From: an uncultured Clostridium sp.
GTDB taxonomy: Bacteria; Bacillota; Clostridia; TANB77; CAG-508
NCBI GenBank assembly: GCA_902406115.1
Contig: CABPCL010000003.1
Coordinates: forward strand, 48,782 to 112,781
Length of the DNA stretch: 64,000 nt
Direction of reading: 5' to 3'
A program made the position numbers and the translations under genes. Shown here in pieces: positions 2,888-48,605 of the stretch. The first letter of the stretch is position 1, and the number at the start of each line of letters is the position of its first letter. Below the pieces are notes generated by a model. That model saw only the letters and a program-made list of their open reading frames with translations. It did not search any database and was not told where the DNA came from.

Positions 2888-5800
2888 TTATATTTTATCT
2901 AACCCTACTAACGCTCTAGCCATTTTTAGTAAGTCAACGCAATTTGGATACTTATTATCTTCAAACACATCAGACGCCATTAGGTAAATTTCATCTAATC
3001 CCTTTTCTTTTCCAGTCATATATCTTGCTAGTCTTAACATATCAGAGTTTGTTACTTTGCCATCACCAGTTAAATCTCCTGTAACAACTATATTTAATAT
3101 TTTTTCTTCTCCATTAAGTGTAAACTTAGCAGTCATTCCTGTACCAATTATATCTGTATCTTTTAACTCTTTATTATCTTTTGTATAAACCTTCATAGAT
3201 GCATTATGCATTATTTTTTCAGCAAATGTTGCAACAGTTGTTTTTTGACGTACTCTGTTAATATATACTTCATCTACTTCATATACATCTGATTTTATCG
3301 ATATATCTGGTGCAGTTCTTATTTTAGTAATGCTAACATTGTAACTTGGTGACATATTTCCTGCTTCGTCTTTTACTTTAATTACAACTTCTTGATTATT
3401 AGCAAATGTTTTCTTGTTGCTTGTTTGCCATGTTTTTCCGTCATCAAAGCTGTATGATATTATACATGAACCACAGTTTCCAGTTATAGTAACTGTTAAT
3501 GTTACAGGCCCGTTTGTCCACTCTGTTGGATTGCCATCAACTTTTATTACAGTTGGAACTGTTTTATCTATTTTAGTTATGTCTATAGTACTATAAGTTG
3601 ATGTATTTCCCAATTTATCTTTAACTTTAATTACTATATTCTTTGTGTTTTCTTTATAAATCTTACTTGCTTCTTTTTGCCATGTCTTTCCGCCATCAAA
3701 GCTATATGGTGTATTATGTAATCCGCACCCTGCATCTGTTGCAGTTATTTTTAATGTTACATCTTTATTTGTCCACGCTGTTGGATTTCCCTCAACCTTG
3801 CTTATGATTGGTGCTGTTTTATCTATATTTGTAATATTAATTGTCTGATATGTTGCAGTATTTCCTAATACATCCCTTACCTTAATTATTATTCCATTTG
3901 TATTATTGGTATAAGTTTTTGTATTAGCTGTTTGCCATGTTGATCCACCGTCAAAGCTGTATGCTGAAGAATGTAATCCGCTTCCTGCATCTGTTGCAGT
4001 TACAGTTAAAGTAACATTTCCTGTTGTCCATGTACCTGGATTTTTTACTACACTGCTAATTGTTGGTGCATTCTTATCAATTCTATTAATAACAATTTTA
4101 TTGTATGTTGTTATATTTCCAGCAACATCTCTTACTTTAATTATTACTTCTTTATTTTCTGTAAATACTTGTTTATTAGAAGATACCCATGTTGTTCCGT
4201 TATCAAAACTATATGGTGTTGAATGTAATCCAGACTCAGCATCTGTTGCTGTTATTGTTAATGTTACATCTCCTTTTGTCCATGCTGTTGGATTTCCTGT
4301 TACACCACTTATTGTAGGTGCAACTTTATCAATTTTTGAAATTGCTACACTAGTTTCATGTGTATTTCCTAGTTTATCTTTTACTTTTATTTTTACCACT
4401 TGATTTGAACTAAATGTTTTTTTATTTGATGTTTGCCATGTTGATCCTCCATCAAAGCTGTATGGTGTAGAATGTAAATCACATCCTGCATCTGTCGCAT
4501 TTATTGTTAATGTAACATCTTTATTTGTCCATGCAGTTGGGTTTCCTGTTATACTACTTACAACTGGTGCATCTTTATCTATTTTCGTAATGCTTTCTAA
4601 TCTAACAGGTGAAATATTTCCTGCTTCATCTTTTACTCTTATTTTTACTTCTTCATTTTTTGTAAAAGTCTTTTGATTTGATAATTGCCATGTCTTTCCA
4701 TCATCAAAACTAAATTGTTCAACAGGTGATCCACTATTTTCATTTGTACTTACTGTTAGAGTTACATTTCCTGTTGTCCAATCATCAACATTTCCTTCAA
4801 CATTTGTTATAGTTGGAACAGTTTTATCTATTCTTAATATATCTATAGTACTATAAGTTGTAGTATTTCCTACTTTATCTCTAACCTTTATTACAATATC
4901 ATATGTAATTCTATCATAAACCTTAGTTGCCTCTTTTTGCCATGTCTTTCCACCATCAAAACTATATGGTGTATCATGTAATCCAGATATTGCATCTGTT
5001 GCTGTTATTTTTAATGTTACATCTTGGTTAGTCCATCTCTTTGGATTTCCTGTTACACTACTTATAACTGGTGGTGTTCTATCTATATTTGTAATATTTA
5101 CTACATCATAAGTTGCTATATTCTCTAATTTGTCTCTTACTTTAATTACTATATTTTTTGTATTTTCTGTATAAACCTTACTTGTTTCTTTTTGCCATGT
5201 CTTTCCACCATCAAAACTATATGGTGTATCATGCAATCCACATCCTGCATCTGTTGCAGTTACTATTAAAGTAACATTTCCTGTTGTCCATGTATCTGGA
5301 TTCTTTACTACACTACTAATTGTTGGTGCGTCCTTATCTATTTTAGTAATATTTAAAGTATTTGTTGTTATATTTCCTGCCACGTCTCTTACTTTAATTA
5401 TTATGCCATTTGTATTTTTTGTATATACTTTACTTGTTGTATTACTCCAAGTTGTTCCACCATCAAATGAATATGCTCCTTGAGCTGTATTTAAACCAGA
5501 TTCTGCATCTGATGCTGTTATTGTTAATGTAACATCATTTTTTGTCCAATCAGCTGGATTTCCTGTTATATCAACTGTTGGTAAAATTTTATCAATTTTA
5601 CTAATTGTTACACTAGTTTCATATATATTACCCACTTTATCTCTTACCTGAATATTTACAACCTGGTTCTTTGTAAATACTTTTGTATCAATATTACTCC
5701 ATGTCTTTCCACCATCAAAGCTATATGGCGTAGAATGTAATCCACTTTCAGCATCTGATGCTGTTATTGTTAATGTAACATCTTTATTGGTCCACGATGT

Positions 5801-8383
5801 TGGATTTCCTGTTATCTTTACAGTTGGCTTAATTTGATCAACATTAATTATTTTTACTGTTTCAGCAAGAGATATATTTCCTGCCTCATCTTTTGCTCTA
5901 ACATATACAGTTTGGTTTGAAGTAAATTCCTTTTGATTTGATGGTTGCCAATCTGTTTTACTTGCATCATTTGTAAAGCTATATCCTATAACTTCAGATC
6001 CACCATTGCTAGTTGCACTAGCTGTTAGTTTTGCTGAGTTTTTAGTCCATTCTGTTGGATTGCCATCAACTTTTAATATACCTGGAACTGTTTTATCTAT
6101 TTTAGTTATGTTTATAGTATTTGTTGTTATATTTCCAGCATTATCTCTTACTTTAATTACTATTCCATTTGTATTGCTAATATATACTTTACTTGTATTA
6201 TTACTCCAAGTTGTTCCACCATCAAATGAATATGCTCCTTGAGCTTTGTTTAGTCTAGCTCCCATATCTGATGCATCTATTTTTAATGTAACATCTTTAT
6301 TTGTCCATGCTGTTGGATTTCCAGTTATTTTCACTGTTGGTGGCGTTTTATCTATCTTAGTAATTGTTTCAGATTTTGCATCACTTATATTTCCTGCTTC
6401 ATCTCTTACTCTGATATATACTATTTGATTTGAACTAAAAGATTTTTTATTTGATGCTTGCCATGTATCCCCATTATTAAAACTATATGCCTTTGCATTT
6501 AGTTTTTTATCATCTGTTGCAGTTATAGCTAGTGTAACGTTTTGATTTGTCCACGAAGTTGGATTTCCTGTTATAGCACTAATTGTTGGTTTTGTAGTAT
6601 CAATATTATCAATTGTTACAGACGTTGCTGCACTTATATTTCCAGCATTATCCTTTACTTTTACTTTTACAGATGTATTTTGTGAATAATGCATTGGATA
6701 AATTGTTGATGTAGTTTCTATCCATGTTGATCCATTATCAAAGCTATATGCTGCGATTCCAGACCCTCCAGTATCTTTTGCATTTGCAATTAGTGATAAA
6801 TCTTTTGTATATTTTTTTGTAGATTTATCAACTCTAATAATTTCTGGTGCTATTTTATCTATTTTTGTAATATTCACATATGAAACAGCGCTCTCATTTC
6901 CAGCAGTATCTCTTACTTTAATATCCACTTCTGTATTGCTAGAGAAAGTCTTTTTATTTGATGTTTGCCAATCTGCACCATCGTTAAAACTATAATCTTT
7001 AATACCACTTGCATCTGATGCATTTACTGTTAAAGTAACACTTCCATTTGTCCATCCATTTGTTGACTTTTCAATACTATTAATTTTAGGTCTAGTTGTA
7101 TCTACTGTTGTAGATCCTCCACTTGAAGATCCTCCACTTGAAGATCCTCCACTTGAAGAACTTTCTTTGCTTACTACAACCTTTACAGTCTTTTGTTGTG
7201 TATTTCCTGCAAAATCTCTAACCTTAACCGTTATAGTTGTATCTTTATTAAATACTTTATAACTTTCCTCTTGCCATGTTTCTCCACCGTCAAATGAATA
7301 AGGCTTCATTATTTTTTCTATTCCCGATCCTGTATCTGATGCTGATATTACATATTTTGCGCCATCATCAGAATAAGAGACAGGTCCACAAGAAATGATC
7401 GTTGGTTTAACTTTATCTATATTATTTACTTTTACTGTTTGCCTTGTCTCATTTCCAACAGCATCTATTACTACTACATCTACGCTTCCATTTTCAGTAA
7501 AAAGAATTTCTCTATTATTATTAATAACTAAATTATCGTAATTACTCTTTAATTTAAATGTTTCATTTATTTTATCTTCAGCACTCAATCCTAAATCCTT
7601 ATTATATAAAAGTTCTGCCTCGTCATCACCTGCATTAATTCTTACAATAACATTACCTGAAGTCCATGCTGTTATATCTTCTTGTGGTGTAATTTCTGGA
7701 CCATTGCTATCTACATGAACATATTGATGTGTATAATCTTTTGCCCACTCAATTACATTAGATCCAGGCTTACAATATATATGAGCCACATTGCTATATC
7801 CAAAAGCCCCACCCCTAATTGTTAAATCACTATTATCTCCTTGTAAATATACAAATAAATAAGGGTCACATGCACTAAAAGCTTCAGATCCTATGCACTG
7901 TACTCCTTCACTGATTACCACATATTTTAATAAAGAGCTTCCAAAAAAGGCCTGATCACTAATCTCATCCATGTATGTTGCACGTATGTATACAGATGTA
8001 AGATAAGGCATTTTCTCAAATGCACTTACCTGTATTGAGTCACATTCTTCTATTACTATATGCCCTATTTTTTCAATATAATCATATGGAACATGTGGTA
8101 ATGCACCAACGCAACTTTCTATAACTAATGTTGCATTTCCTGTTTTGTTTTCATCGCCGGTCACATAATTGTTATATACCAATTTTGCTTTAACTTTGCT
8201 ATTTCCATAATCTATATCAATGCTTTTAACTTCTCCTGCATTTTTCTTACTCTCCGCTATTTGCATTTCGCTTGAGGATTCAGTTACGTTCTTTGAAATA
8301 GCATACCTTCCTATGACAATCGCCATTGATGATACAACTATCAAAATTAAACAAATACAAATTAAAGTTTTAAACCTCTTCAT
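2888..8383 (-). CDS. Giant secreted protein with an N-terminal BspA-type leucine-rich-repeat domain, ~14 tandem Ig-like repeats and a C-terminal dockerin-like module
   Basis: The start is set at MKRF (signal peptide), 9 nt after an AAGGAGAGGG RBS; the track ORF begins 31 codons earlier. An LRR_5-like region is present (IPxxVxxIGxxAF...). A SSSGG linker follows. About 14 ~95-aa repeats share the motif TxxPxIxxxxGNPTxWTNxDVTLTIxAxDxxSGLHxTPYSFDGGKTWQ. The C-terminus carries two Ca-binding dockerin-like segments (GDLTGDGKVTNSDMLRLARYM ... SDVFEDNKYPNCVDLLKMARALVG). Confidence 0.8.
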   Translation of the reverse strand: MKRFKTLICICLILIVVSSMAIVIGRYAISKNVTESSSEMQIAESKKNAGEVKSIDIDYGNSKVKAKLVYNNYVTGDENKTGNATLVIESCVGALPHVPYDYIEKIGHIVIEECDSIQVSAFEKMPYLTSVYIRATYMDEISDQAFFGSSLLKYVVISEGVQCIGSEAFSACDPYLFVYLQGDNSDLTIRGGAFGYSNVAHIYCKPGSNVIEWAKDYTHQYVHVDSNGPEITPQEDITAWTSGNVIVRINAGDDEAELLYNKDLGLSAEDKINETFKLKSNYDNLVINNNREILFTENGSVDVVVIDAVGNETRQTVKVNNIDKVKPTIISCGPVSYSDDGAKYVISASDTGSGIEKIMKPYSFDGGETWQEESYKVFNKDTTITVKVRDFAGNTQQKTVKVVVSKESSSSGGSSSGGSSSGGSTTVDTTRPKINSIEKSTNGWTNGSVTLTVNASDASGIKDYSFNDGADWQTSNKKTFSSNTEVDIKVRDTAGNESAVSYVNITKIDKIAPEIIRVDKSTKKYTKDLSLIANAKDTGGSGIAAYSFDNGSTWIETTSTIYPMHYSQNTSVKVKVKDNAGNISAATSVTIDNIDTTKPTISAITGNPTSWTNQNVTLAITATDDKKLNAKAYSFNNGDTWQASNKKSFSSNQIVYIRVRDEAGNISDAKSETITKIDKTPPTVKITGNPTAWTNKDVTLKIDASDMGARLNKAQGAYSFDGGTTWSNNTSKVYISNTNGIVIKVRDNAGNITTNTINITKIDKTVPGILKVDGNPTEWTKNSAKLTASATSNGGSEVIGYSFTNDASKTDWQPSNQKEFTSNQTVYVRAKDEAGNISLAETVKIINVDQIKPTVKITGNPTSWTNKDVTLTITASDAESGLHSTPYSFDGGKTWSNIDTKVFTKNQVVNIQVRDKVGNIYETSVTISKIDKILPTVDITGNPADWTKNDVTLTITASDAESGLNTAQGAYSFDGGTTWSNTTSKVYTKNTNGIIIKVRDVAGNITTNTLNITKIDKDAPTISSVVKNPDTWTTGNVTLIVTATDAGCGLHDTPYSFDGGKTWQKETSKVYTENTKNIVIKVRDKLENIATYDVVNITNIDRTPPVISSVTGNPKRWTNQDVTLKITATDAISGLHDTPYSFDGGKTWQKEATKVYDRITYDIVIKVRDKVGNTTTYSTIDILRIDKTVPTITNVEGNVDDWTTGNVTLTVSTNENSGSPVEQFSFDDGKTWQLSNQKTFTKNEEVKIRVKDEAGNISPVRLESITKIDKDAPVVSSITGNPTAWTNKDVTLTINATDAGCDLHSTPYSFDGGSTWQTSNKKTFSSNQVVKIKVKDKLGNTHETSVAISKIDKVAPTISGVTGNPTAWTKGDVTLTITATDAESGLHSTPYSFDNGTTWVSSNKQVFTENKEVIIKVRDVAGNITTYNKIVINRIDKNAPTISSVVKNPGTWTTGNVTLTVTATDAGSGLHSSAYSFDGGSTWQTANTKTYTNNTNGIIIKVRDVLGNTATYQTINITNIDKTAPIISKVEGNPTAWTNKDVTLKITATDAGCGLHNTPYSFDGGKTWQKEASKIYKENTKNIVIKVKDKLGNTSTYSTIDITKIDKTVPTVIKVDGNPTEWTNGPVTLTVTITGNCGSCIISYSFDDGKTWQTSNKKTFANNQEVVIKVKDEAGNMSPSYNVSITKIRTAPDISIKSDVYEVDEVYINRVRQKTTVATFAEKIMHNASMKVYTKDNKELKDTDIIGTGMTAKFTLNGEEKILNIVVTGDLTGDGKVTNSDMLRLARYMTGKEKGLDEIYLMASDVFEDNKYPNCVDLLKMARALVGLDKI
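3290..7360. repeat. Tandem ~285-300-bp intragenic repeat array encoding Ig-like domains
   Basis: Near-identical nucleotide blocks recur, and the antisense junk ORFs 3414..3596, 4101..4403, 6006..6242 and 6246..6428 echo each other. The translated protein shows ~14 copies of the same domain. Confidence 0.8.
7113..7160. repeat. Three copies of a 15-nt tandem repeat (GATCCTCCACTTGAA) encoding an (SSSGG)n linker
   Basis: This is a direct perfect triplication in the sequence. It translates to SSSGGSSSGGSSSGG between the LRR head and the Ig-like array. Confidence 0.85.
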
Positions 8384-8480
8384 GTTTTCCCTCTCCTTTT
8401 TTCTTTCCATCATATAATTACACATATTTAAATCAAATGCAATATGCCTTTTCTTACATATATTTTCTCGTGTCATATGC

Positions 8481-8548
8481 CTTTACGGAAGGTCATTTTA
8501 TATGTTTATTAAAAATTCATTACGGTTTTATTACAATTTTGTTACAAT
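8481..8548. promoter_or_regulatory. Conserved upstream element (TTACGGAA ... CATTACGG ... TTACAATTTTGTTACAAT) in the divergent promoter region of the giant surface gene and the ABC transporter
   Basis: A direct repeat TTACAAT-N4-TTACAAT lies at 8531..8548, with TTACGG boxes at 8483..8489 and 8520..8525. The same architecture recurs at 28677..28743 and 38679..38743, upstream of the two adhesin operons. Confidence 0.45.
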
Positions 8549-8690
8549 CAACTTATTTTTATTGAAAGTGTCTTCGCACAGTCGTATTTGCGGTTTTTTC
8601 AATTTTAAATAATTTGTTAATATATCCTCTCACCTAATCCATTTATTTAACATAAAATATAATAGGATAAATTGCAAAAGGAGGAAAAAA

Positions 8691-18356: not shown

Positions 18357-21300
18357 TTATTTTTTTAGTACTTTTCTAATGATAAATGCAATTCCACCGA
18401 TAAGGATAATTCCTATTACTGTTCCTAAGATATAGTAGATATGTGTATTACCAAATGGTGGTAATACCATTACTTCTTCTGATGAAGAAGCATCAACTTC
18501 TGCAACAGCTTCTGTTGGTTTTTGGTTTCCTACTATTGAGTAAGCCATTCTTCTTCCTGCAGTGTTGCTTGTTTCAACGATTTCTGCAATATTAATGTAT
18601 TTTAGGTTATCACTTGTATTCTCTGGTGTAATAGTTTGTGTTAATACAAGTGTTTTTTCAGCTGTAGAATCTCCTGGTTCTAATGTATCACTAAATGTTG
18701 TTGTTAAAATAGTATTATATTGTGGTTTATCATCTTTAAGAATTACACCAGCTACATCTGCATTAACAAGTTTATTGTTTATTACATCGTTTACTGTCAT
18801 AACTTGCCAATCATTTGTATTGCTATTGCTATTAAATTGTAAATTATTTGATACATAATCTATTATTCTGTTAGGTGTTGTTGTTACAGTATTTCCATGG
18901 TTCTTACCTGTATAATAGAATTCTTTGCCTTCATAATCTACTTCTCCAACATTTTTTACTTTAATTTTGTAAGTAATTTGTATTGTAGCTCCATGCATTA
19001 TTTCTTCATCCATTGATAATTGTACTAAGCCTTTTGCATTTGATCCTATAGTTGGTCTATATTTTTTATCATATATTCCATTTTTCTTATTACTATCAAT
19101 GTTATATGCTGTATTTGATTTCCAAGCAACATTGTCTGCTGATTGATTTACATCAAATAATATACTTCCATCTGCAAGTGTTACTTTAATGTTTGATACA
19201 GTTTTATTTAACTCTAATTGTGCTTTTGGTCTCTCAACTAGTCCTAAGTTTACACCTTTGATAGCATAACCTGGTGCTGGATTTTCTGTAGTAACTTGTC
19301 TGTTATATTCTATTTCAGCTACTATTGTTTTTGTATCAGCAATCATTTTGCTTCCTTCACCTTTTGCAAGTTTCTCTGCCATTTCATTTTTTACATTAGC
19401 TGCACTACTTGCATTTAGTGTTGTTCTTACATCCCACAAATCTGCTGCTCTTGATAAGTTCTCGTCACTAACATCTAAGTTATATTTATCACTGTCGCCA
19501 TAATCTTGGTATATTGTAGTTTTATAGTCTTGTCCATTATATTTTACTGTACCATCTCCGTATGTGAATCTTACAATGTAATCTCCTGCAACTACATTGC
19601 TAAATGTATATTTATTTCCATCTACAGATAATTTAGCATCTTTTACTAGTTCAAATTGTTTTTCGCTCTTTGCTCTATATAATTCTACCTTTATTCCTTC
19701 CTTAGCTATATCAATTTTTGTATCTTTATTATTGTATACTCCGTCTCCTATTACGCTGTCGTCTACTTTATTGTTTCTTGCATCTTCCCATACAGTACCT
19801 GTTATTGTTCTGTCACCTTCAACTTTAGCATTTAATCCTGGTGCTTTATCTTCATCATCTTCTTTTGGTCCATTTGATTTGTTTAAGTTATTTGGTATTG
19901 AATCTCTATCTACTCTTCCTGCTATAGTTGTGTTATTTTTTACCTCATATTCGTTTTCTCCATTATAGCATGGTAATACTGTTCCTTTTTTATAGTATGA
20001 TTTAAATGCTGCTATCTCTGCTGTGTTTGTTTTAGTTCCTGTTATTACTTTTCCGCTTTCATCTTTTTTAACTTTAAATGTTAAATATAAATATTTTGCT
20101 TCACCACTTTGAAGTTTTCCACTAAATGCAATGTCTAAAGTATTGTTTGTATTGCTATTTATATTAACTGTACTTTCATATTGACCCTTTGATATTGCTT
20201 TTGAATTCTGTAGGCTATTAACTATTCTTCCTCTTACATCAGTCAAATCATTTGTTGAATAGTTCTTACTACTTATCCATGAAAGTTCTGGTACATACGT
20301 ATATGTTGAATCATAATAATCTTTTATTTTAGTTGCTTCTCCTAACATACTCATTGATTGATTCTTTACTGCGACCTTGTATGTCACATATAATTCTAAT
20401 GTTTTACCATTTCCATTTACTCCTGTAAAGTTGTAATCTGGTTCTGCAATGGCTCTTTGATAATCTCCTTCTACAACTGTTATTGTCCAATTGCTTAAAG
20501 CTTTCTCTTTTTCAGTCTCAGATAAACTTTCGAAGTTTGAAATACTATCTTGTATGTTCTTTTTGTTATATCCATATGTTTGAGTTTTTCCATTAACCGT
20601 TACAGTTGCTGCATATACGTCTTTTTCAAGTTTCATATCAAATTCTATTCTCTTTGTTATACCAAAGTTAATATTACTTATTACTTTGTTTTCTTCTGAT
20701 TTTTTCTCTTTGTTATATATGTCTGTCTGTGCAGTTATCTTAAACCTGTCGATGTTTGTGGTATATTTTGATATATCTTCTAGTTTATATCCTTCATCAC
20801 CATCTATCTCTTCAAGTCCTTTATTTAAACTGTCTCTAGCTGCTTGTGGTTCGTAAGCTTGTGAACTTCCTGTATTTTTATTATTTGCTCTATATAATGT
20901 GTTTTCATATTCTTGTCCATTATATGTAAAAGTAATATAGTAGGCTTTATCTACATCTAATTTTGCAAATTCATAATAACCATTATTATCTGTATTTGTT
21001 GTTTGAGTACTGTTATTAGATTTATTGTGTAAAGTAACCGGAATACCAGATATTCCTTTTTCATTACTGTCTTTTAATCCATTAGCTAGAGTTTCTTTTC
21101 CTCCTCTTACATCTTCCCAAACAGTTCCGCTTAATTTTAATGTTGGTTTTAATTTTAATAATTCAAAGTCATCATCATCTTCTTGACTTGTGCTTCCATA
21201 ATTACTTCTATTTACATTTTTAGGTGTTGAATCTCTATCTGCACCATCATCATCTGTTATCTCAGCTATATTCTTTAGGTTTTGAGCTTTTGTTGCTGTG

Positions 21301-23411
21301 ACTTCACACTCAATTTGAACATCTCTATATGCTAACGTTGTTCCATTAAATGCTGCAATTTCTTTATCTTTTAAATATTCTGACACCATTGTTTTTCCAT
21401 CTTTTGATGGATTTGTCCAACCATATGTTGTATTTATTTTGCTATTTTCTGCAAGTTTTAATCCCTCTGGTAAGTAATCTGTAATTTGTGTTGCTTTTCC
21501 GTTAACATTACCTTCATTATATACTCTAATTGTATAAACTACTTTATCTCCTGTAGTTACTTCTAATGCATTCTTTGGATGTGATTTAACTGCTGTTGTT
21601 TTTGTACTGTTCTTTAATGCTGCAATTTCAGATGCTGCAATAGAAGGTACTCTAGTTACAGTTGGTGCTTTTCCATTAATTGATGTAATGAATTTTCTTA
21701 ATGCTAAGTCATATGATGGTTCATTTTTCATTTTAAGAGTTATAGTAGTTTTGTCTTTGCTTATAGTTGATGTCATTGGAGGTGTAACTACATTGTTTGT
21801 TTTAGCATTTGGATCTGCATTTTTATATGCAGTTATCGATATTGCTTTTACCATGTATTGTTTTACTCCGTTTGTGTTTGTTCCAAGTTCTTTTTCAACT
21901 CTTACTTTTATTCCTCCAGTAAATCTTTCATATCCAGATGGAGCTGCAATTTCTGTTATCCAATAATATTCTGTGTTTGCATTAGATACATTTACACTAG
22001 TTAAGTTATATACACCATTTGTGTTGTTAAATATATTTGTTGAGATTGTTTCCCACTTATTATTTCTATATTTGTATAAGTTGAATCTTGCACCTGATAA
22101 TGCTACATCTGTATTTGAAGAACTTACTTTCTTTATATCTAAATCATATTTTCCTTCTTCTATAATGTCTCCACCATTTATAGTTTCAGTTAATTTTTGT
22201 AATTCTCGGTTTGAATTTATGATATACACTGGTTGTGCATTTTCTTTTGAACCAGTATATGTTCCAACATAGTGTTTCATATTATATTCTGCAGTCATGT
22301 ATTCAAATTCAACTCTAATTTTAAAATTCGTTACCCAATTATTATCTTTTGATGTTTTACCTTTATTTGGATCATTAAACTTAATACTAAAGTTTTCTCC
22401 TGATTTTGGATACATAATTTCAGAGTTTCTATCTATCTTTTCTCCTGAAGCAGAAAAATATTTTGCTGTTTTCTGACTATTTGCTTGTGTATATGTTGAT
22501 ATTTTATTTTCACCAACTTTTGTTCCATTTTTATTGTAATATTCAACATATATACCACTAATACCTGAAAAATTAATTGTATTATTACCAACAGTTTTTG
22601 TGTAACCTGTATGTGTTACATTTAATTGACTTACTGTATATACACCATTAGATTTAGTTACAGTTGGTTCTGTAGTATTAAGTTTAAGTGTCTGACTTCC
22701 ATTATTAGCATATGCATTATACATACGTGCTTCAGTTACAAGTTTTTTTACTTCTTGTACAACTTTTCCATTTGCTTCGCCATTTACCATATCTACATCT
22801 TGAAAGTGTCCTGTTGAAGCATTCCAATTCAATTCTGTTCTATTATTTTTTATTACAGTTGCCCATGTTCCCCAACCTTGGCCTCTTATAAGCCAATATG
22901 CTTGTTGTTTTGTATACCAATCAATCAAGCTTGAAGGAAATTTATTAAACTGTGCAAATTTTTTTTCATCACTTAAGCTATTAAATCCATTTGTATATGA
23001 GCTGTAACTACCTGTAGCATCATTTACTGAAAATATGTAAGCTGCTTGTTTCTTCTGATTCTCAGTTATATTCTCCCAGCTATTTCCACTGCTTTTTTTG
23101 TATGTTATGCTCTTAGTTAATTTAGTTATAGGATAACTTCCACCTCTATACCAGTCTGCTGTTTGTGTTAAAAAACTTGTTGATCTATTATCACAATATA
23201 TGTGATAATCTCCTTTATATGGTACAAAGAAACGATTTAATTCTGATACTGTAAACTCATCTGGAAAATTGCTATTATCTGCTAATCGTTCTACTGGACT
23301 GGCAAAAATGTTACTAATTAGTTCTTCATTTTTAGTTAGATTATATATGCCAAATATAGTTAACGCTGATATTAATATTGCTAAACTTATCTTTATAAAT
23401 TTACTCTTCAT
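18357..23411 (-). CDS. Large surface adhesin A (1684 aa) with SpaA/Cna-B isopeptide-type domains, DUF11, two SdrD-B-like domains and a C-terminal membrane anchor
   Basis: A signal peptide and a GGAGG RBS are present. Cna-B/SpaA-like segments occur (LSGARFNLYKY...WITEIAAPSGYERF). A DUF11 motif is present (TGDKVVYTIRVYNEGNVNGKATQITDYLPEGLKL). SdrD-B-like segments occur (GTVWEDVRGGK...GIPVTLHN...YYEFAKL). The C-terminus reads VLPPFGNTHIYYILGTVIGIILIGGIAFIIRKVLKK. Confidence 0.8.
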   Translation of the reverse strand: MKSKFIKISLAILISALTIFGIYNLTKNEELISNIFASPVERLADNSNFPDEFTVSELNRFFVPYKGDYHIYCDNRSTSFLTQTADWYRGGSYPITKLTKSITYKKSSGNSWENITENQKKQAAYIFSVNDATGSYSSYTNGFNSLSDEKKFAQFNKFPSSLIDWYTKQQAYWLIRGQGWGTWATVIKNNRTELNWNASTGHFQDVDMVNGEANGKVVQEVKKLVTEARMYNAYANNGSQTLKLNTTEPTVTKSNGVYTVSQLNVTHTGYTKTVGNNTINFSGISGIYVEYYNKNGTKVGENKISTYTQANSQKTAKYFSASGEKIDRNSEIMYPKSGENFSIKFNDPNKGKTSKDNNWVTNFKIRVEFEYMTAEYNMKHYVGTYTGSKENAQPVYIINSNRELQKLTETINGGDIIEEGKYDLDIKKVSSSNTDVALSGARFNLYKYRNNKWETISTNIFNNTNGVYNLTSVNVSNANTEYYWITEIAAPSGYERFTGGIKVRVEKELGTNTNGVKQYMVKAISITAYKNADPNAKTNNVVTPPMTSTISKDKTTITLKMKNEPSYDLALRKFITSINGKAPTVTRVPSIAASEIAALKNSTKTTAVKSHPKNALEVTTGDKVVYTIRVYNEGNVNGKATQITDYLPEGLKLAENSKINTTYGWTNPSKDGKTMVSEYLKDKEIAAFNGTTLAYRDVQIECEVTATKAQNLKNIAEITDDDGADRDSTPKNVNRSNYGSTSQEDDDDFELLKLKPTLKLSGTVWEDVRGGKETLANGLKDSNEKGISGIPVTLHNKSNNSTQTTNTDNNGYYEFAKLDVDKAYYITFTYNGQEYENTLYRANNKNTGSSQAYEPQAARDSLNKGLEEIDGDEGYKLEDISKYTTNIDRFKITAQTDIYNKEKKSEENKVISNINFGITKRIEFDMKLEKDVYAATVTVNGKTQTYGYNKKNIQDSISNFESLSETEKEKALSNWTITVVEGDYQRAIAEPDYNFTGVNGNGKTLELYVTYKVAVKNQSMSMLGEATKIKDYYDSTYTYVPELSWISSKNYSTNDLTDVRGRIVNSLQNSKAISKGQYESTVNINSNTNNTLDIAFSGKLQSGEAKYLYLTFKVKKDESGKVITGTKTNTAEIAAFKSYYKKGTVLPCYNGENEYEVKNNTTIAGRVDRDSIPNNLNKSNGPKEDDEDKAPGLNAKVEGDRTITGTVWEDARNNKVDDSVIGDGVYNNKDTKIDIAKEGIKVELYRAKSEKQFELVKDAKLSVDGNKYTFSNVVAGDYIVRFTYGDGTVKYNGQDYKTTIYQDYGDSDKYNLDVSDENLSRAADLWDVRTTLNASSAANVKNEMAEKLAKGEGSKMIADTKTIVAEIEYNRQVTTENPAPGYAIKGVNLGLVERPKAQLELNKTVSNIKVTLADGSILFDVNQSADNVAWKSNTAYNIDSNKKNGIYDKKYRPTIGSNAKGLVQLSMDEEIMHGATIQITYKIKVKNVGEVDYEGKEFYYTGKNHGNTVTTTPNRIIDYVSNNLQFNSNSNTNDWQVMTVNDVINNKLVNADVAGVILKDDKPQYNTILTTTFSDTLEPGDSTAEKTLVLTQTITPENTSDNLKYINIAEIVETSNTAGRRMAYSIVGNQKPTEAVAEVDASSSEEVMVLPPFGNTHIYYILGTVIGIILIGGIAFIIRKVLKK

Positions 23412-23427
23412 TTTCTTCCTCCTTTCC

Positions 23428-26400
23428 TTATCTATTTTTACGTTTTTTCTTTAAGACTCTTGTTTTAATTTCATATACTCCAAATCCTAAAATTACCATT
23501 ACTCCAAATGCTATTGCAGTATATGTTATTATTTTACCTGTTACTATTGATATTGCTATATCTGCTTTTGACATATCATCTTCGTTTTCTTCTTTGTTTC
23601 CTGGTGTTGAATCTATGTCTTTTAATCCTTGTTCATTATATGCTTCATATATTTCAGCATTATTACTTAATACTCCTAAGCTGTCCTCTGTTATCTTCTT
23701 TGTTAACACTAATGTTAACTCTTTTGTTTCTCCTAGGTTGATTATCTCATTTGCTAGACTTGCATTATATACATTTCCGTTATCTGATAAGTACCAGTCT
23801 TTATTTAACTCTGTACTAAATCCTACTCCTGTTGGTAAGTAATCTACTACTTTCTTTGCATATCCTGCTACTTCTCCTTCATTTTTTATTACTATCTTGT
23901 ATTCTATTACCATACTGCTCTTTCCTACATTGCTTCCTAATACTTCTACTTTTGCTGTCTTTGAGTTATTATGCTCATCTGTTCTTGTTCCTATTGTTGG
24001 TGTTGTTAATGCTATTCTACTTACATATTTCTCTAGGCTTAAATCAAATTTCTCTGATGTATATACTCCTATGTCTATATCTCTTACATTCTCGTTTGTT
24101 ATATTTATTACGTCTGTTATTCCTGCTATTGTTCTATTTCCATCTACTGTTATATTAATGCTTATCGCATCTGAGTTTGAATATTCATCTACTCCCTTTG
24201 CTCTATATGTTGTTAATGTATATTTTGTTGCATCATATAGGAATACTACTATGTATTCCCCTTGTGGTAAGTTTGTAAACTCATATTTTCCATCGCTTCC
24301 TGTTGTTACTCTCTTCTCCTCTTTGCTCTCTGCATCTTTTACTATTGTATTGTCTGCTTTATTTAATAATATTACTGTTACGTTTGGTAATATTTCTTCG
24401 CTTGAATCCCTCTTTCCATCTTTATTGCTATCTATCCATGCTGTTCCTGTTATTTTATATCTATTGCTCTTTGGTTCATCTGGTGTTGGATTATCTGGAT
24501 TATCTGGATTTGGATTATCTGGATCTGGATTATCTGGATCTGGGTTGTCTGGATTTGGCTCGTCTGGAGTATCTGGATCTACTGGTGTCTCATGTGCATT
24601 TGAATCATATTCTATTGTATTTGTTACTATATTTGTTTTTGTTTCATCAAATCCTTGTGCTGATACTGTAGCAAAGTTTTGTATTTCTTTATCATTTTTA
24701 TCTGACAATAATTTTGCTTTTGTTGTGACTGTTATATCAATAGATTCACCACTTTCTAATTCGTTTACTAATACTTTAATGTTATTATCTCCATTATTTT
24801 TAATTGAGTTAACTATTGATCCTTTAATATATGTAATCTCTTCAAATTGTAATTCTTCTGGTAATTGATCTGTTATTACTATATCATTTGCAGTTACATT
24901 TCCAGTATTTTTTATTGTAAATTTATATGTAATAGTATTTAATTCTTTTACATACTTTGGTGTAGAAGTTAATTCAGATATTGCTAATTTTACTGTTTCT
25001 GTACCATATTCAATTGCATTAGAATATTGTTTTTCTACTCCATTTCCCTCTGCTGTAGCTATTACTTTTATTTTCCCTACATAGTCTTGTATTTCTAATT
25101 TGAAAATGACAACTTTTTCTTCACTTAATGTTCCTAAATTTATTGTAGCAATATTACTCGTTTTGTCATAATTTAATCCATCTGTTACTTCTTGGCTATT
25201 TAATATATCATCTCCAGCAGAAACAGCTTTTAATTCAACTCCTTGTGGTAATGGTATATTTACAACTGTATTATCTATATTTGCATTTTCTGATATGTTT
25301 TTTAAATAAAGTATATACCTAACTGTATCTTGTTTCTTTAATATAACTGAATCTTCTTTATCTCCAACTAATTTTAATTCAATACTTCCTTTTTGAATTT
25401 CAAACTTATATTCATTAGATGATATATCACCTGATATTTCATCTGATGTGATGCTTGCCTTATTAATAACTTCTTGTGGTAATGTTTCTGATATATTTTT
25501 ATTTATTTGAATATAGTATGAACATTCATATTTTTCCTTTGCATTAATTTTATCTATGCTAATTTCTTTAGATGTTATATTTTCTTCTATAAAAGTAGAA
25601 TCTGTATAATATCTTACAAACTTCGCATATTTAGCTAATGGTACATTTACCTTTACATTGTTTGCTGCTGTTGAACCTGTATTTTTTACAGTTATATTCA
25701 TCTTAACTATTTGTCCTTCTCTTACAACATCTGCTGTAGAAGAAAGCTCTGCTGTAAGCACTGGTCCTTGTCCTGTTGTTAACCCTATTGTTGCTGATGT
25801 TTTTGTTTCAGCAATAGTTCCTATACTTGATACGTTGTTATAGTAAACTTTATACATTTCATATGCACTATTGTTGTAATTTAATTTTTCAGGAATTATT
25901 ACATCATATGAAAATTCTATTTTACTTCCTTTTACCATATCATATCCATTTGTTACAATTAAATATGATTTTGATTGATTTGTTGCTTGTGTTGTCCATC
26001 CGTTGTTTGCATCTGAAACATCTTTTGTTGCATTTGCTTTATTTGAGTAATACACTGTATATTTCGATTTGTCAATTCCTGATAATGCAACTTCTGTTTC
26101 TAATGTTGTGCTAAATGTTGAGCCTAAAGCTTCGTCTGAATCTATTTTTGTATTATCTTTTGCAGGAATTCTTCCTAAAATAACTACATTATTAAGTGTG
26201 TTTTCATAGTTGTTTATTACTACACCATTTACTGTTGCAGTTCTTTTTGCTGCATTTACTGTAAGTGCTCCTGTAACAGCTGTTTCTGATATTGTAAATA
26301 TGTCATTTTTTCCACTTGCATAGTTTGAAATTCCATTTGCAGCAACTAATCCTGTAGGAGCTACAAAGTTTAATGCAGCTGTTGCTGTTCCAGTTTTGTT

Positions 26401-28470
26401 TGATGATGCTGTGTTTTCATTTGTAAAGCTCATTGTTATTTTGCTTGAGCTACTTGGTGTTAAAGTATTAACTGTTAAATCTGTGCTAAGAACTATAATT
26501 GTTCCTTTATATTCTGCATTAATTGTGTATTGTGTTTGTGTTCCTTCTAGCACAACATTAATTACTTGTGATCCATTTTCTGTTGCAACTGTTGCACTCT
26601 TGATTTTTAAACCATTATCCATTACAATATCGTAATTTTTTAAATCTACTTTGCTTACGTATGATGGTAATTTAATTTTTAATGTAGGATTTTTGTATAA
26701 AGCATTGTTTATACTTGATGTATCTAAAGTTGCTCTTATTTCTACATTTTCATTTTTTACTACAGTTGTTAAATCTGTTTTGCTTATTGCAATTTCTGCT
26801 ACAGTTTTTGGTTCATTTAATAGCATTTCTGTTGAAGCATTAACTGTTGAAGTTCCAGCCTCTCCTTTTAATGCCATTTTTATTTTCTTAAATGTTTTTA
26901 TCTCGTTTATTGTGTAATCTATATCTACTCCAATTGCTTTTTCAACTTCAATTTCTAGTTGACCTTCTGTAATTGGTTTACTTGAAACTATAGTTAATCC
27001 ATTGTTATTTAATGAGCTTATGTCTAAAGCATAGTTTCCATTTTTATCTACAGCTGTTTCTTTATTAATTGTTTTACCTATTTTTGTTCCATTCTCATCA
27101 TATAATTCTATGGTTCCATCTTCGCCAAGTATTTTATTAAATACTTTTTGGCTTACTAATACTTTTTTGTTGTATGTACTATTTTTTCCTGAAGTTGTAG
27201 TTAAGTATTCAGTGTTATCTGATGTTAGGAAGTTATCAACTGATTGTGTAAATTTTATAGAATTTACTATCTCTGCATCGTTTATAGTTGCAACATAATG
27301 TAATGAATATGCTGTTTCACTTTTCTTTGTTGAATCAAAATTTGCATATGTTTGTCCTTTTCCAACTGATGTTTTATTTGCAATTACATCAAAGTCTGTA
27401 ATTGTTTTTAATCTTTCTGTTACACTGATTGGTACATTTATTTCATCTGATTGTACTGTTGTAGCATCATTGTTGTATACACTTATACTTGCAGACACTT
27501 TTGCATTAGCATTAACCCCATTTGTTTTTGCTTCGTTATATATTTCCTCGCCTTCAAATATGAAGTTTACTAAATATTCATCCTCTACATTTTTAACCCA
27601 TGAGATATTGTCTGTAGCATTTGAAGTTGTAATATCTACAGTACCATTTTCAGCATTGTAGCTATAGTTTTGTACGGTGAAGTTTAATCCACTCTCTTCT
27701 CCATTAGTTGCTTTTGTTGTATTTGCAATTACATTAACAGATGTTGGATTTACTCCATTAACTTGAGGTGCTTGTACCTTTATTTGTGTTGTTTTAACTG
27801 GTAATTTGCTATCTTTGATACTTGTATTTACTTTTACTTGTAGTAATACTCCATATTTACCACTTGTAGCAAATGGAACAAATCTAGTTAATTCACTTTT
27901 TACAACTGCTTCTGCAGTTCCATTCCAAGAAAGTTTATTTACAATCTCTTTTGAAATATCTTTCTCATTTCCATTTCCATCTACATACTTACCTGTAAAT
28001 CTTACTGTATTTTCTCTTGAAAAATTATCTGCTTTTACTGTTTCGCTGTTTAAAACAGATATTGGTATTTCTAGAGTTACATCTGATCCATTATTTATTT
28101 GTTTTAGTGTGATCGTATTAGTATCTTTGTTAATACTTTGAACATAATCACTCTTTACTTCGCCATTTATCTTAAAGTTAACGTCGCTAAAACTGATCTT
28201 TCCGTTCTTCAAGTACCCTACATTTTTCACTTTAATATTCATATACAATTTTGTAGTTGTACTATCTATATTTTCAGTTTTAACATGCTCTCCTCCCTCA
28301 AAATATGAATTAAACTCTACATTTGAGTTTTGTGTTGTTGTGGTTTGGTTTGCTAATTGAGTATCTGTTAATGCATATGATATGCTATACATTCCTAGCA
28401 TTGACAAATTAGCTCCTGCTAGTACTATTACTAACATTACTGCAATTAGTTTTTTTAATAATTTATACAT
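23428..28470 (-). CDS. Large surface protein B (1680 aa) with multiple DUF11/beta-sandwich domains, a PDN-repeat proline-rich linker, an SdrD-B-like domain and a C-terminal membrane anchor
   Basis: Signal peptide MYKLLKKLIAVMLVIVLAG and a GGAGG RBS are present. A DUF11 motif occurs (GQGPVLTAELSST...VKVNVPLAKYAKFV). The (PDNPD)n linker is followed by TGTAWIDSNKDGKRD...YEFTNLPQGEYIVVF. The C-terminal TM reads TAIAFGVMVILGFGVY + KTRVLKKKRKNR. The stop lies 16 nt before gene A. Confidence 0.8.
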   Translation of the reverse strand: MYKLLKKLIAVMLVIVLAGANLSMLGMYSISYALTDTQLANQTTTTQNSNVEFNSYFEGGEHVKTENIDSTTTKLYMNIKVKNVGYLKNGKISFSDVNFKINGEVKSDYVQSINKDTNTITLKQINNGSDVTLEIPISVLNSETVKADNFSRENTVRFTGKYVDGNGNEKDISKEIVNKLSWNGTAEAVVKSELTRFVPFATSGKYGVLLQVKVNTSIKDSKLPVKTTQIKVQAPQVNGVNPTSVNVIANTTKATNGEESGLNFTVQNYSYNAENGTVDITTSNATDNISWVKNVEDEYLVNFIFEGEEIYNEAKTNGVNANAKVSASISVYNNDATTVQSDEINVPISVTERLKTITDFDVIANKTSVGKGQTYANFDSTKKSETAYSLHYVATINDAEIVNSIKFTQSVDNFLTSDNTEYLTTTSGKNSTYNKKVLVSQKVFNKILGEDGTIELYDENGTKIGKTINKETAVDKNGNYALDISSLNNNGLTIVSSKPITEGQLEIEVEKAIGVDIDYTINEIKTFKKIKMALKGEAGTSTVNASTEMLLNEPKTVAEIAISKTDLTTVVKNENVEIRATLDTSSINNALYKNPTLKIKLPSYVSKVDLKNYDIVMDNGLKIKSATVATENGSQVINVVLEGTQTQYTINAEYKGTIIVLSTDLTVNTLTPSSSSKITMSFTNENTASSNKTGTATAALNFVAPTGLVAANGISNYASGKNDIFTISETAVTGALTVNAAKRTATVNGVVINNYENTLNNVVILGRIPAKDNTKIDSDEALGSTFSTTLETEVALSGIDKSKYTVYYSNKANATKDVSDANNGWTTQATNQSKSYLIVTNGYDMVKGSKIEFSYDVIIPEKLNYNNSAYEMYKVYYNNVSSIGTIAETKTSATIGLTTGQGPVLTAELSSTADVVREGQIVKMNITVKNTGSTAANNVKVNVPLAKYAKFVRYYTDSTFIEENITSKEISIDKINAKEKYECSYYIQINKNISETLPQEVINKASITSDEISGDISSNEYKFEIQKGSIELKLVGDKEDSVILKKQDTVRYILYLKNISENANIDNTVVNIPLPQGVELKAVSAGDDILNSQEVTDGLNYDKTSNIATINLGTLSEEKVVIFKLEIQDYVGKIKVIATAEGNGVEKQYSNAIEYGTETVKLAISELTSTPKYVKELNTITYKFTIKNTGNVTANDIVITDQLPEELQFEEITYIKGSIVNSIKNNGDNNIKVLVNELESGESIDITVTTKAKLLSDKNDKEIQNFATVSAQGFDETKTNIVTNTIEYDSNAHETPVDPDTPDEPNPDNPDPDNPDPDNPNPDNPDNPTPDEPKSNRYKITGTAWIDSNKDGKRDSSEEILPNVTVILLNKADNTIVKDAESKEEKRVTTGSDGKYEFTNLPQGEYIVVFLYDATKYTLTTYRAKGVDEYSNSDAISINITVDGNRTIAGITDVINITNENVRDIDIGVYTSEKFDLSLEKYVSRIALTTPTIGTRTDEHNNSKTAKVEVLGSNVGKSSMVIEYKIVIKNEGEVAGYAKKVVDYLPTGVGFSTELNKDWYLSDNGNVYNASLANEIINLGETKELTLVLTKKITEDSLGVLSNNAEIYEAYNEQGLKDIDSTPGNKEENEDDMSKADIAISIVTGKIITYTAIAFGVMVILGFGVYEIKTRVLKKKRKNR
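24484..24585. repeat. Tandem 9/18-nt repeats (GGATCTGGATTATCT-type) encoding the (PDNPD)n linker in B
   Basis: The period is visible directly in the sequence; there are ~5-6 units. Confidence 0.8.
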
Positions 28471-28676
28471 AGTAACCTCCTAAAAATTATTATCTCAACC
28501 TATATTATACGACATTTTCGTTCACATTTCAATACTTTTGCGGTTTTTTATAAACTTTTTATGTAGAATAACATGTTATATAATATTTAAATATATATTT
28601 ATATATAATTTTAGCATTTTTTAGCCATTTTTCAACACTTTCCGTCATTATATGCACAGTAAAAACAACAAGAGTT

Positions 28677-28764
28677 CTTACGGAATCTTGTTGTTTGAAT
28701 AAAATATTAAGTTTTCATTACAATTTTTTTACAATTTTACAAGAGTAAGCATTTACAATTTTTG
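28677..28764. promoter_or_regulatory. Conserved upstream element in the B-A operon leader (CTTACGGAA in a hairpin loop, ATTACAATTTTTTTACAATTTTACAAG, third TTACAAT)
   Basis: TTACAAT-N4-TTACAAT lies at 28718..28735 and a further TTACAAT at 28753..28759. An inverted repeat CAACAAGA..TTACGGAA..TCTTGTTG lies at 28666..28693. The element is ~250 nt upstream of the B start codon. Confidence 0.45.
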
Positions 28765-34851: not shown

Positions 34852-34861
34852 CCTCCTTTCC

Positions 34862-37800: not shown

Positions 37801-38512
37801 TAACATTTGATTCTGTTATTGTAAATACTTCTGCTTTTCCTTCTGCATATTGTGATATAGCATTTGTTGTAATTAGTCCATTAGGAGCAACAAATTTTAT
37901 TTCTGTTGATACTGTTTCTTCACTAGTTATATTTTTTGTATTTTCGTTTGTATATTTCATTACTACTTTGCTTTTGTTGTCTGGTGTTAATTTATTAACA
38001 GTTAAGTCTGTGTTGAATATTATAATTGTTCCTCTGTATGCTGCATCTATTGTATGTTCAGTTTGTGTTCCCTCTAACACAGCTTTTATAACTTTTGATC
38101 CATTTTCTTCTTGAACGTTTGCACTTTTTATTGATAGTCCGTTTTCCATCAAAATATCATAATTTTTTAAGTTCACGCTTTCTATGTATGATGGTAATAC
38201 TATCTTTAGCGTAGGATTTTTGTACAAAGCATAGTCTTTATTTGAAGTATCTAAAATTGCTCTTATCTCTACGTTTTCATTTTTTACTACCGTAGTTAAC
38301 TCAGTTCTATTTAGTTGTAGCTCAGCAATAGAATGTGATTTATTTTGATTCTCTGCTGTGCCTTGAGTACTTGCTGTTACTGTGGTTTGTTCTTGTGATT
38401 GAGTTGATTCTTGTGCATATGAAATGCTATTATTCCCAAGTACTACTAAATTTGACGCCATTAGAACTGTCACTAATAGTAATATTAATGATTTCCTTAA
38501 AAATTTGTACAT
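34862..38512 (-). CDS. Surface protein B' (~1216 aa), an N-terminally shorter paralog of B
   Basis: The start is taken at MYKFLRKSLILLLVTVLMA (signal peptide) with a GGGGGA RBS; the track ORF extends 42 codons further into the leader. The last ~1.05 kb matches the 3' end of B almost exactly (copies offset by 11428 nt). The PDN linker is expanded. Confidence 0.75.
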   Translation of the reverse strand: MYKFLRKSLILLLVTVLMASNLVVLGNNSISYAQESTQSQEQTTVTASTQGTAENQNKSHSIAELQLNRTELTTVVKNENVEIRAILDTSNKDYALYKNPTLKIVLPSYIESVNLKNYDILMENGLSIKSANVQEENGSKVIKAVLEGTQTEHTIDAAYRGTIIIFNTDLTVNKLTPDNKSKVVMKYTNENTKNITSEETVSTEIKFVAPNGLITTNAISQYAEGKAEVFTITESNVKGELAVKAQKRSSNVKGLIINNYDNSLQDLVILGRIPAKDNKKTNSDENLGSTFSTTLTTQVGLNGIDSSKYTIYYSNKADATKDISDANNGWTTQATNQSKSYLVVTNGYEMNKGSKIELSYGIEIPENLEYKNSSSEMYQVYYNNVSSVGTMAETKVSPVVELTTGQGPELTAELSSTVDTIREGQIVKMNLVIKNTGSVAATNVKVTVPLPECAKFVYYSTGNQFHERVDMVEQTYEVNEIKVGNEYNYSYYIQINKDISNTLPKEIINKASITFSETEDVILSNKIKFNIQKGSIDMRLVSDKAEDTVLKPKNNIEYRLYLTNISDKESIDNTIVTIQLPNGLIYKQGSIENIISDEEEIQDAISYDETTNTITANIETLIDSKVMTFETEVKSSEETVVKVIASALADGVEKHYSNILINTVKIVQLKVSELKTSPRYVKEENEFTYTFSIQNIGEISASSVFIEDNLPEGVKIQEIQVKKGEEEILSTNNSNQNDVALTLGILEPGEIYNITIKVMADLLPDENDKEVQNYLTVSAYGVEKINTNTVTNIIEYNATPNDPNPDNPKPDNPDPDNPDPDNPDPDNPDPDNPDPDNPDPDNPDPDNPNPDNPDPDNPNPDNPDNPTPDEPKSNRYKITGTAWIDSNKDGKRDSSEEILPNVTVILLNKADNTIVKDAESKEEKRVTTGSDGKYEFTNLPQGEYIVVFLYDATKYTLTTYRAKGVDEYSNSDAISINITVDGNRTIAGITDVINITNENVRDIDIGVYTSEKFDLSLEKYVSRIALTTPTIGTRTDEHNNSKTAKVEVLGSNVGKSSMVIEYKIVIKNEGEVAGYAKKVVDYLPTGVGFSTELNKDWYLSDNGNVYNASLANEIINLGETKELTLVLTKKITEDSLGVLSNNAEIYEAYNEQGLKDIDSTPGNKEENEDDMSKADIAISIVTGKIITYTAIAFGVMIMLGYGVYEIKRRILRKKNN
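35912..36110. repeat. Expanded tandem 9/18-nt repeat array encoding the (PDNPD)n linker in B' (~11 units)
   Basis: The track translation PDNPDPDNPDPDNPDPDNPD... shows the array is roughly twice as long as in B. Confidence 0.8.
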
Positions 38513-38678
38513 AGTAAATCCCCCCGCTATATATCCGCATGATTTAATAAAACAAGTATAACTGTATTTTTTTAAATTCATACCTATATATATCCTTTTA
38601 TTCGTATATAATTTTAACATTTTATTAATAGCATTCAACCCTTGTTACGCGCTCTTTTCTTTATATTTCAACATTTTT

Positions 38679-38981: not shown

Positions 38982-38998
38982 GTACAATTTTAGGAGGG

Positions 38999-48165: not shown

Positions 48166-48223
48166 CTCGTAAATAAATTATACCAATTTATTTACTATAA
48201 TATTTTACAGATGTATTTTATAT

Positions 48224-48589: not shown

Positions 48590-48605
48590 ACTTCTTCCTC
48601 CCTAA

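Follow-up and report, generated by a model that had tools for sequence, protein, structure and literature searches.

The surface-protein operons and their host

The window (the whole 64,000-nt stretch of DNA analysed here) is chromosomal DNA of about 29% GC from a spore-forming, Clostridium-like bacterium, with spoIIE, mreBCD, minC, radC, mecA, pcrA, prfA and a PBP gene among its contents. Its proteins are found on human-gut metagenome contigs only. Large genes for signal-peptide-bearing surface proteins lie on the minus strand. The dockerin-protein gene (2888-8383) encodes an exported protein of 1831 aa with LRR_5, BNR, CHB_HEX_C and Dockerin_1 domains, and its true start is the ATG at 8383, behind the strong ribosome-binding site AAGGAGAGGG. 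A two-gene adhesin operon (18357-28470, starting at 28470) specifies proteins of 1680 and 1684 aa built from DUF11, SdrD_B and SpaA domains. It is followed by a paralogous two-gene operon with the same DUF11/SdrD_B/SpaA composition (28951-38512; genes at 34862-38512 and 28951-34851), the start of which is corrected to the ATG at 38512. The two adhesin operons stand in tandem (18357-38512) and were duplicated along with their leaders of about 250 nt; a related species (L128) has a single operon copy beside a divergent small-protein gene. This arrangement suggests that the duplication is recent in the window species.

A phased direct repeat upstream of each operon

The sequence TTACAAT-N4-TTACAAT occurs exactly on the plus strand at 8531-8548 (site 1), 28718-28735 (site 2) and 38718-38735 (site 3). 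All of the large genes lie on the minus strand, so the repeats are upstream of them, in intergenic DNA, at 148 nt from the start codon of the dockerin gene and at 248 and 206 nt from those of the adhesin operons at sites 2 and 3. Three copies are found in the window when up to one mismatch is tolerated, against 0.30 expected, and none of 100 shuffles reaches three. The initial annotation had placed this repeat in front of three surface-protein operons, and these counts bear it out. At sites 2 and 3 an off-phase third copy, TTACAAG, follows on the plus strand (28737-28743 and 38737-38743).

Read on the minus strand, which is the gene strand, each repeat belongs to a longer array of half-sites. 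The array of site 1 (8508-8548) consists of TGTAAC (8546-8541), TGTAAT (8535-8530), CGTAAT (8524-8519) and a degenerate TTTAAT (about 8513-8508), all 11 bp apart. That of site 2 (28706-28743) opens with the off-phase CTTGTAA (28743-28737, at 8 bp) and continues with TGTAAA (28733-28728), TGTAAT (28722-28717) and CTTAAT (28711-28706). The array of site 3 (38706-38743) has the same order, with CTTGTAA at 38743-38737, TGTAAA at 38733-38728, TGTAAT at 38722-38717 and CTTAAT at 38711-38706. A weaker half-site one turn beyond the repeat is therefore present everywhere, as CGTAAT at site 1 and CTTAAT at sites 2 and 3. Direct repeats phased at 11 bp are the signature of winged-helix regulators of the OmpR/PhoB family, which bind head-to-tail. 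With high probability, the TTACAAT repeat serves as an operator for some regulator of this family.

The best-fitting member is WalR (also YycF or VicR), whose consensus is TGTWAH-N5-TGTWAH (PMC9210968, PMC4168254). On the gene strand this consensus is matched exactly by TGTAAC-AAAAT-TGTAAT (8546-8530), TGTAAA-AAAAT-TGTAAT (28733-28717) and TGTAAA-TAAAT-TGTAAT (38733-38717). The window has only four exact matches in all, the one beyond these three sites being within a coding region. The stricter form TGTAA-N6-TGTAA has three matches in the window against 0.66 expected. The earlier proposal of an operator of direct repeats, one helical turn apart, common to the three operons, is thereby supported.

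In Streptococcus mutans, footprinted VicR sites occur on either strand, including one at the surface-protein gene wapA, and the site at gbpB is of the form TGTAAT-N5-CGTAAT (PMC4168254). The segment TGTAAT-AAAAC-CGTAAT of site 1 has the same form as this footprinted, high-affinity gbpB site. An A at the seventh position is found in four of the six half-sites; that rule (TGTWAHA-N4-TGTWAHA) is an S. mutans refinement and species-specific (PMC4168254). The genome of Clostridioides difficile holds only 29 intergenic sites with the exact consensus, and these include predicted sites by the surface-protein genes cwp2 and cwp12 (PMC9210968). Thus the hexamer direct repeat, the 5-nt spacer, the 11-bp period and the placement upstream of exported or envelope genes, on either strand and with surface proteins among the known (wapA) or predicted (cwp2, cwp12) targets, are all shared with WalR operators. 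What sets the present sites apart is that they comprise three to four phased half-sites, precede the predicted promoters of very large adhesin and dockerin genes by 110-150 nt, and are always paired with a TTCCGTAA box that is no part of any described WalR site.

The companion box

This second element, a (C/T)TTACGGAA box, lies 39-49 nt before each repeat on the plus strand. At sites 2 and 3 it reads CTTACGGAA on the plus strand (from 28677 and 38679) and TTCCGTAAG on the gene strand; the site 2 copy (28677-28685) sits in the loop of a local hairpin (28663-28696), and the site 3 copy (38679-38687) is the exact same 9-mer. The box of site 1 (8482-8490) reads TTTACGGAA on the plus strand, that is, CTTTACGGAA plus one extra T, and TTCCGTAAA on the gene strand, where it lies 39 nt after the repeat; it is invariant in five strain contigs. 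A shared box upstream of each repeat had been described before. Its fixed spacing and its exact identity at sites 2 and 3 stand, but site 1 departs from the described sequence, with TTTACGGAA at 8482.

TTCCGTAA(G/A) is kept in every surface-protein module, that is, a repeat with its box, as well as in promoters of M23 peptidase genes, and in every surface-protein module the box lies 29-41 nt downstream of the array. A fourth, exact copy in the window, CTTACGGAAAT (48279-48287, minus strand), is upstream of an M23 peptidase gene (47146-48165, minus strand) and has no TGTAAT repeat nearby. The bare 9-mer is not enriched in the window (five occurrences at up to one mismatch against 6.07 expected), so that only its fixed position before each repeat is non-random. 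We treat TTCCGTAA as a second, separately conserved element of the DNA and a putative protein-binding one. No relevant paper came up in a full-text search of the literature for TTCCGTAA or TTACGGAA, nor for clostridial direct repeats of TTACAAT.

Several known elements were compared with the box and rejected. Sigma-I promoters have an AAA tract 13-14 nt upstream of a CGWA -10 element and a T 4 nt downstream of it (PMC4711584). They drive the cellulosomal dockerin genes of C. thermocellum under SigI/RsgI control, and here too a dockerin gene stands behind a CGTA that would fit CGWA; one published sigma-I promoter even reads ttcCGtAaaag (PMC4711584). CGTA is present at all sites, but the A-tract 13-14 nt upstream and the downstream T are missing: the distance upstream to the nearest AAA is 8 or 17 nt at site 1, 11 nt at site 2, 4 nt at site 3 and 18 nt in L124, a locus syntenic with site 3, and there is no conserved T at +5. 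Unlike a sigma-I promoter element, the box also precedes non-dockerin genes and is found upstream of a sigma-A promoter in M23 orthologs. An ECF-type -10 (TGAAAC-N16-CGTA) fits site 1 only, as ATAAAC-N16-CGTA, with spacings of 10 and 26 nt at sites 2 and 3. None of a sigma-H -35, a Spo0A box, a CodY box, a PurBox or a Zur box fits, as judged by eye against remembered consensus sequences. An additional in-phase WalR half-site is rejected as well, the offsets of 38-50 nt being no multiples of 10.5-11, and a leader peptide across the box, in the form of an ATG...TGA mini-ORF, exists at site 1 only.

Conservation and shared ancestry of the module

In an alignment of five modules, the repeat, the third half-site and TTCCGTAA are the only conserved elements. 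Between species, the flanks of the module score like shuffled sequence (z about -1 to 2), whereas the repeat and the box are kept. A similar pattern is seen among strains. In four strain contigs covering site 2, the 130 nt ahead of the array carry 15 SNPs, and the stretch that runs from the array through to the box is free of them. This places the array at the distal edge of the control region of the adhesin gene. At site 3 both SNPs between repeat and box fall in the spacer, leaving repeat and box untouched. All four to six strain contigs per site have the same orientation and flanks, and thus give no sign of an invertible promoter switch.

The copy in front of the dockerin gene was previously regarded as unexplained by duplication. 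Its flanks are indeed unlike the two adhesin leaders in the window, but the 75 nt that follow the repeat are 69% identical (z 6.8) to the adhesin module of another species, L141. This identity indicates that the regulatory module has a common origin and has travelled separately from the coding sequence.

The module in other genomes

A metagenome scan for the two-part pattern (repeat, 22-50 nt, TTCCGTAA) returned 24 stretches, with about three expected by chance on a rough base-composition estimate. About 18 come from AT-rich Clostridia; three unrelated higher-GC loci account for six. The clostridial modules fall into three groups. The first comprises strains of the window species and covers all three sites. 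The second consists of modules before large surface-protein genes in other species (L141, L128 and L130, to which the genome match L124, syntenic with site 3, is added); the L141 gene encodes a 1631-aa adhesin that is 42% identical to the window's adhesin over the C-terminus. The third group is made up of promoters of M23 peptidase orthologs in four species.

Small genes accompany some of these modules. In the window, a divergent operon at 38823-39789 encodes three small proteins of 52, 148 and 115 aa, with only weak matches to YlbD_coat and YtzH. In L124, L128 and L141 a small gene of 52-56 aa stands beside the adhesin module; L124 and L128 also have the 148-aa gene, and all three genes of the operon recur in strain contigs L001-L004.

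The repeat also occurs in a wider range of bacteria. A collection-wide genome scan for the 19-mer (ATTGTAANNNNATTGTAAT, or ATTGTAA-N4-ATTGTAAT) gave at least 120 matches, many of them single, which serve here as a cross-phylum set rather than a purpose-built control. Among those listed, 56 are from Bacillota, of which 42 fall outside long open frames; for the other phyla the figure is 34 of 64. The genes beside the listed Bacillota matches look like a WalR regulon, with hydrolases and division genes. They include genes for LysM plus NlpC/P60 proteins in Bacillus and Solibacillus (L019, L094), NlpC/P60 proteins in B. infantis and Lacticaseibacillus (L055, L108), SH3_3 plus PG_binding_1 (L097), SpoIID plus SH3 (L056), a SleB-type Hydrolase_2 (L070), a Peptidase_M23 (L031), an SLH protein (L095) and an exported LRR protein. 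SepF is Pfam-confirmed at L005, with a near-identical protein at L079. Counted by directly flanking locus among the listed Bacillota matches, NlpC/P60 with or without LysM appears four times and M23 six times. Wall hydrolases belong to WalR regulons wherever these have been examined (PMC7299342). CCGTAA stands within 70 nt of only one of the at least 120 listed genome matches, the locus L124 of a Bacillota MAG, and the box is consequently no general companion of WalR-like sites.

Promoters and orientation

Predicted sigma-A promoters are found between the box and each gene, on the minus strand. The dockerin gene has TTGATT-16-TATGAT (8409-8436), with the centre of the box at about -85. Two candidates precede the adhesin operon of site 2 (28504-28635), namely TTGAAA-16-TGcTAAAAT (28635-28608), relative to which the box is centred at about -80, and TTGAAA-17-TATAAT (28532-28504). 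The prediction for site 3 is TTGAAT-16-TGtTAAAAT (38611-38638). In L141 and L124, TTGACA/TTGACT-17-TATAAT is predicted. Altogether the best predicted promoters, which are strong ones, lie 37-49 nt beyond the box, which puts the box at roughly -80 to -92 and the array at roughly -110 to -150. The latter is unusually far upstream and counts against the WalR reading.

L124 and L141 have in addition a consensus promoter, TTGCAA-17-TATAAT, about 35 nt upstream of the array. The sequence AAAAAACCGCAAA, found on the minus strand near sites 1 and 2 (8585-8597 and 28537-28549), has its L124/L141 counterpart in the spacer of this promoter, and at site 1 the counterpart of the -10 has decayed to GTGCGA.

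In Bacillus-type genomes, the gene beside the repeat is oriented in the TGTAA direction, and only 41-100 nt separate the repeat from the gene start; this short distance, too, counts against the WalR reading. The arrays in the window have the same orientation to their genes as those beside the Bacillus-type LysM and NlpC/P60 genes, and from this agreement activation is the proposed mode of action. At sites 1 and 3, judging by position, the divergent plus-strand gene (an ABC transporter gene at 8691 and the 52-aa ORF at 38823, respectively) could be the target instead, or may respond as well.

The M23 peptidase promoters

In M23 orthologs of four species, the box precedes TTGCAA by exactly 16 nt. 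This hexamer belongs to a TTGCAA-17-TATTAT promoter whose -10 is overlapped by the repeats. A repeat over the -10 would be in a position typical of repression. The composite of repeat and box is here flipped relative to the gene, and this opposite orientation, with the overlap of the -10, counts against reading the direction or the sign of regulation from sequence alone.

The pairing of the two elements varies among M23 genes. The ortholog L031 has a repeat without a box, and the window's own M23 gene has a box without a repeat. In closer relatives lacking the repeat, with M23 orthologs fetched by protein similarity, L152 retains the box, L149 and L155 have an altered form, and L150, L151, L153 and L154 are without it; in the window's own M23 context it may be decaying. 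Two further TTACGGAA copies in L153 and L155 are inside CotF-like coding sequence and were set aside as coincidental.

The surroundings of the M23 gene have features of their own. Two small cotF-like genes (48222-48790), recognized by sequence and by the Coat_F annotation of the relatives' orthologs, precede it, and a terminator-like hairpin, AAGATTTTAAAC...GTTTAAAATCTTTTTTT, comes directly after the CTTACGGAAAT box. Relatives share the gene order pcrA, 62-aa ORF, CotF, M23, mecA, DUF4321, radC. In L150 and L151, the place of the CotF genes ahead of M23 is taken by the 3' end of a gene for a protein of more than 1500 aa with a YDG domain match, which marks the neighbourhood as a hotspot for giant surface-protein genes.

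Probable control of giant adhesins by WalR

The TTACAAT repeat is probably an operator array for WalR. WalRK is said to occur in all Firmicutes (PMC9210968), and phosphorylated WalR activates yocH, cwlO and lytE and represses iseA (PMC7299342). In the mechanism proposed, the phosphorylated regulator would bind the array head-to-tail, as one or two overlapping dimers. From upstream of the sigma-A promoters, the bound array would raise expression of all three surface-protein operons at times of high WalK signalling, which is to say during active wall growth. The TTCCGTAA box would be the site of a second partner factor. If WalR does bind, an uncultured human-gut Clostridium has its largest surface proteins, the dockerin LRR/BNR protein included, under the direct control of the essential system for wall homeostasis in Firmicutes. 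Adhesion to host or substrate would then be coupled to growth of the cell wall, which extends the hints given by wapA of S. mutans and by cwp2 and cwp12 of C. difficile.

A regulator dedicated to adhesin expression had been suggested as the user of this operator. Given the exact WalR consensus and the 19-mer beside hydrolase and division genes among the listed Bacillota matches, the regulator is probably not a dedicated one, and the motif gives no evidence for a new adhesin regulator. The type of operator is already known; the points of interest are the giant adhesin and dockerin genes as likely WalR targets and the companion box.

The box raises the smaller question of a second factor in the WalR-controlled promoters of one clade. 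As a tentative extension, with the chances against it, repeat and TTCCGTAA may form one clade-specific composite switch, in which the factor that recognizes the box works together with WalR bound 29-41 nt away. Such a switch would keep the geometry of its elements when flipped, with the promoter inside the composite at M23 genes and outside it at adhesin genes. If this holds, giant adhesins, the dockerin protein and an M23 hydrolase join a wall-status-dependent programme in uncultured gut Clostridia.

Other readings of the repeat

Binding by a different OmpR/PhoB-family regulator, such as a PhoP-like paralog or a clade-specific two-component system with a small envelope regulon of giant adhesins, dockerin protein and M23 peptidase, is the strongest competitor, although an unlikely one. 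The pho boxes of PhoB and PhoP have the same architecture, two direct repeats of 7 bp with 4 bp of A/T between them (PhoB consensus in PMC4168254), are often multi-unit and overlap or replace the -35. The restriction of the TTCCGTAA pairing to one clade and two gene classes also hints at a specialised circuit. PhoP-type regulators recognise almost the reverse complement of a TGTAAT-type repeat, and the PhoP box of B. subtilis is TT(A/T/C)ACA, from which the reverse complement of the present half-sites (ATTACA/TTTACA) is one to two mismatches away. The invariant TGTAAT, as ATTACA, nevertheless breaks the PhoP rule, and site 1 has GTTACA; every site thus carries one or two mismatches to PhoP against none to WalR, whose consensus is matched without mismatch at three of three sites. 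The half-sites of pho boxes (CTGTCAT, as in E. coli, or TTAACA) likewise differ from TGTAAT, and the neighbouring genes are not phosphate genes. The exact 19-mer beside canonical WalR targets among the listed Bacillota matches again points to WalR.

It is improbable that the repeats are themselves core promoter elements of a shared promoter cassette, with TTGTAA as a gene-strand -35 or TACAAT as a plus-strand -10 of tandem or divergent sigma-A promoters. A promoter TTGTAA-17-(C/T)(T/G)TAAT can be drawn at all sites, and the plus-strand scan yields TTAAAA-17-TACAAT at site 1 and TTGAAT-18-TACAAT at site 2. Overlap with promoter elements has parallels, both in the M23 orthologs, where the repeat coincides with the clear TTGCAA-17-TATTAT that reads in the TTACAAT direction, and in the VicR site of S. 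mutans gtfC, which overlaps the -35 and the -10 (PMC4168254). The gene-strand -10 candidates CTTAAT and CGTAAT, however, are without the A that is critical at position 2, and the promoter scan did not call them. On the plus strand of site 2 nothing lies downstream, and that side is SNP-rich. Neither the 11-bp phasing of two to three half-sites nor the association with hydrolase genes of distant Bacillota is accounted for by a plain promoter.

An action through RNA, in which a promoter farther upstream would yield a cis-acting leader (a riboswitch, an antiterminator or a leader that binds protein), is highly improbable. The consensus TTGCAA-17-TATAAT some 35 nt ahead of the repeat in L124 and L141 could allow repeat and box to be transcribed, and a stable hairpin surrounds the box at site 2 (28663-28696), with a stem of 9-11 bp, -12.7 kcal/mol and a z of -4.9. 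That hairpin had been noted in the initial annotation, as an inverted repeat enclosing the box, and is real. The leader RNA offered there as an alternative finds no such backing: no Rfam family reaches the gathering threshold in the window, RNAalifold gives 0 pairs for the five modules, and the hairpin is missing at sites 1 and 3 (z -0.7 and -1.3). Even at site 2, strain L137 has a SNP that breaks the stem and is not compensated, and in M23 genes the promoter comes only after the box. Large surface-protein genes with long non-coding leaders are also known from clostridia such as C. difficile, with cwpV and CD2831 as examples of control by a c-di-GMP riboswitch or an invertible switch; the present leaders differ from these in having no Rfam match, no conserved fold and a single orientation in the strain contigs.

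A functionless coincidence of AT-rich DNA and paralogous adhesin leaders is extremely unlikely: sites 2 and 3 are paralogous and single 19-mer matches do arise by chance in many phyla, but the excess over 0.30 expected copies, the independent dockerin copy with its unrelated flanks, the conservation across species and strains and the box at 29-41 nt in every surface-protein module all contradict it.

Other features of the window

Two genes elsewhere in the window are interrupted. pcrA/uvrD (49008-51387) is split into two overlapping ORFs at about 50553 by an extra C, in AGC TTT AGA [C] GGA GCA GAC ATT (expected SFRGADI), and the orthologous loci of relatives encode an intact PcrA of 762-782 aa. 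Either the break is an error of sequencing or assembly, or a gene that is normally essential has here become a pseudogene. Next to it (51414-56454), a gene for a ZIP/ZupT-like zinc transporter is divided into an N-terminal part at 55963-56454 and a C-terminal part at 51414-51695, both on the minus strand. The insert of about 4.3 kb contains a large serine recombinase gene (51756-53282), an Amidoligase_2 ORF and unknown ORFs, and may represent a mobile element that has integrated or else an intervening element of the sporulation type. It is flanked by 33-nt imperfect inverted repeats (51696-51728 and 55976-56008) and by the exact 14-nt direct repeat ATATACCTTCTGGT (51698 and 55989).
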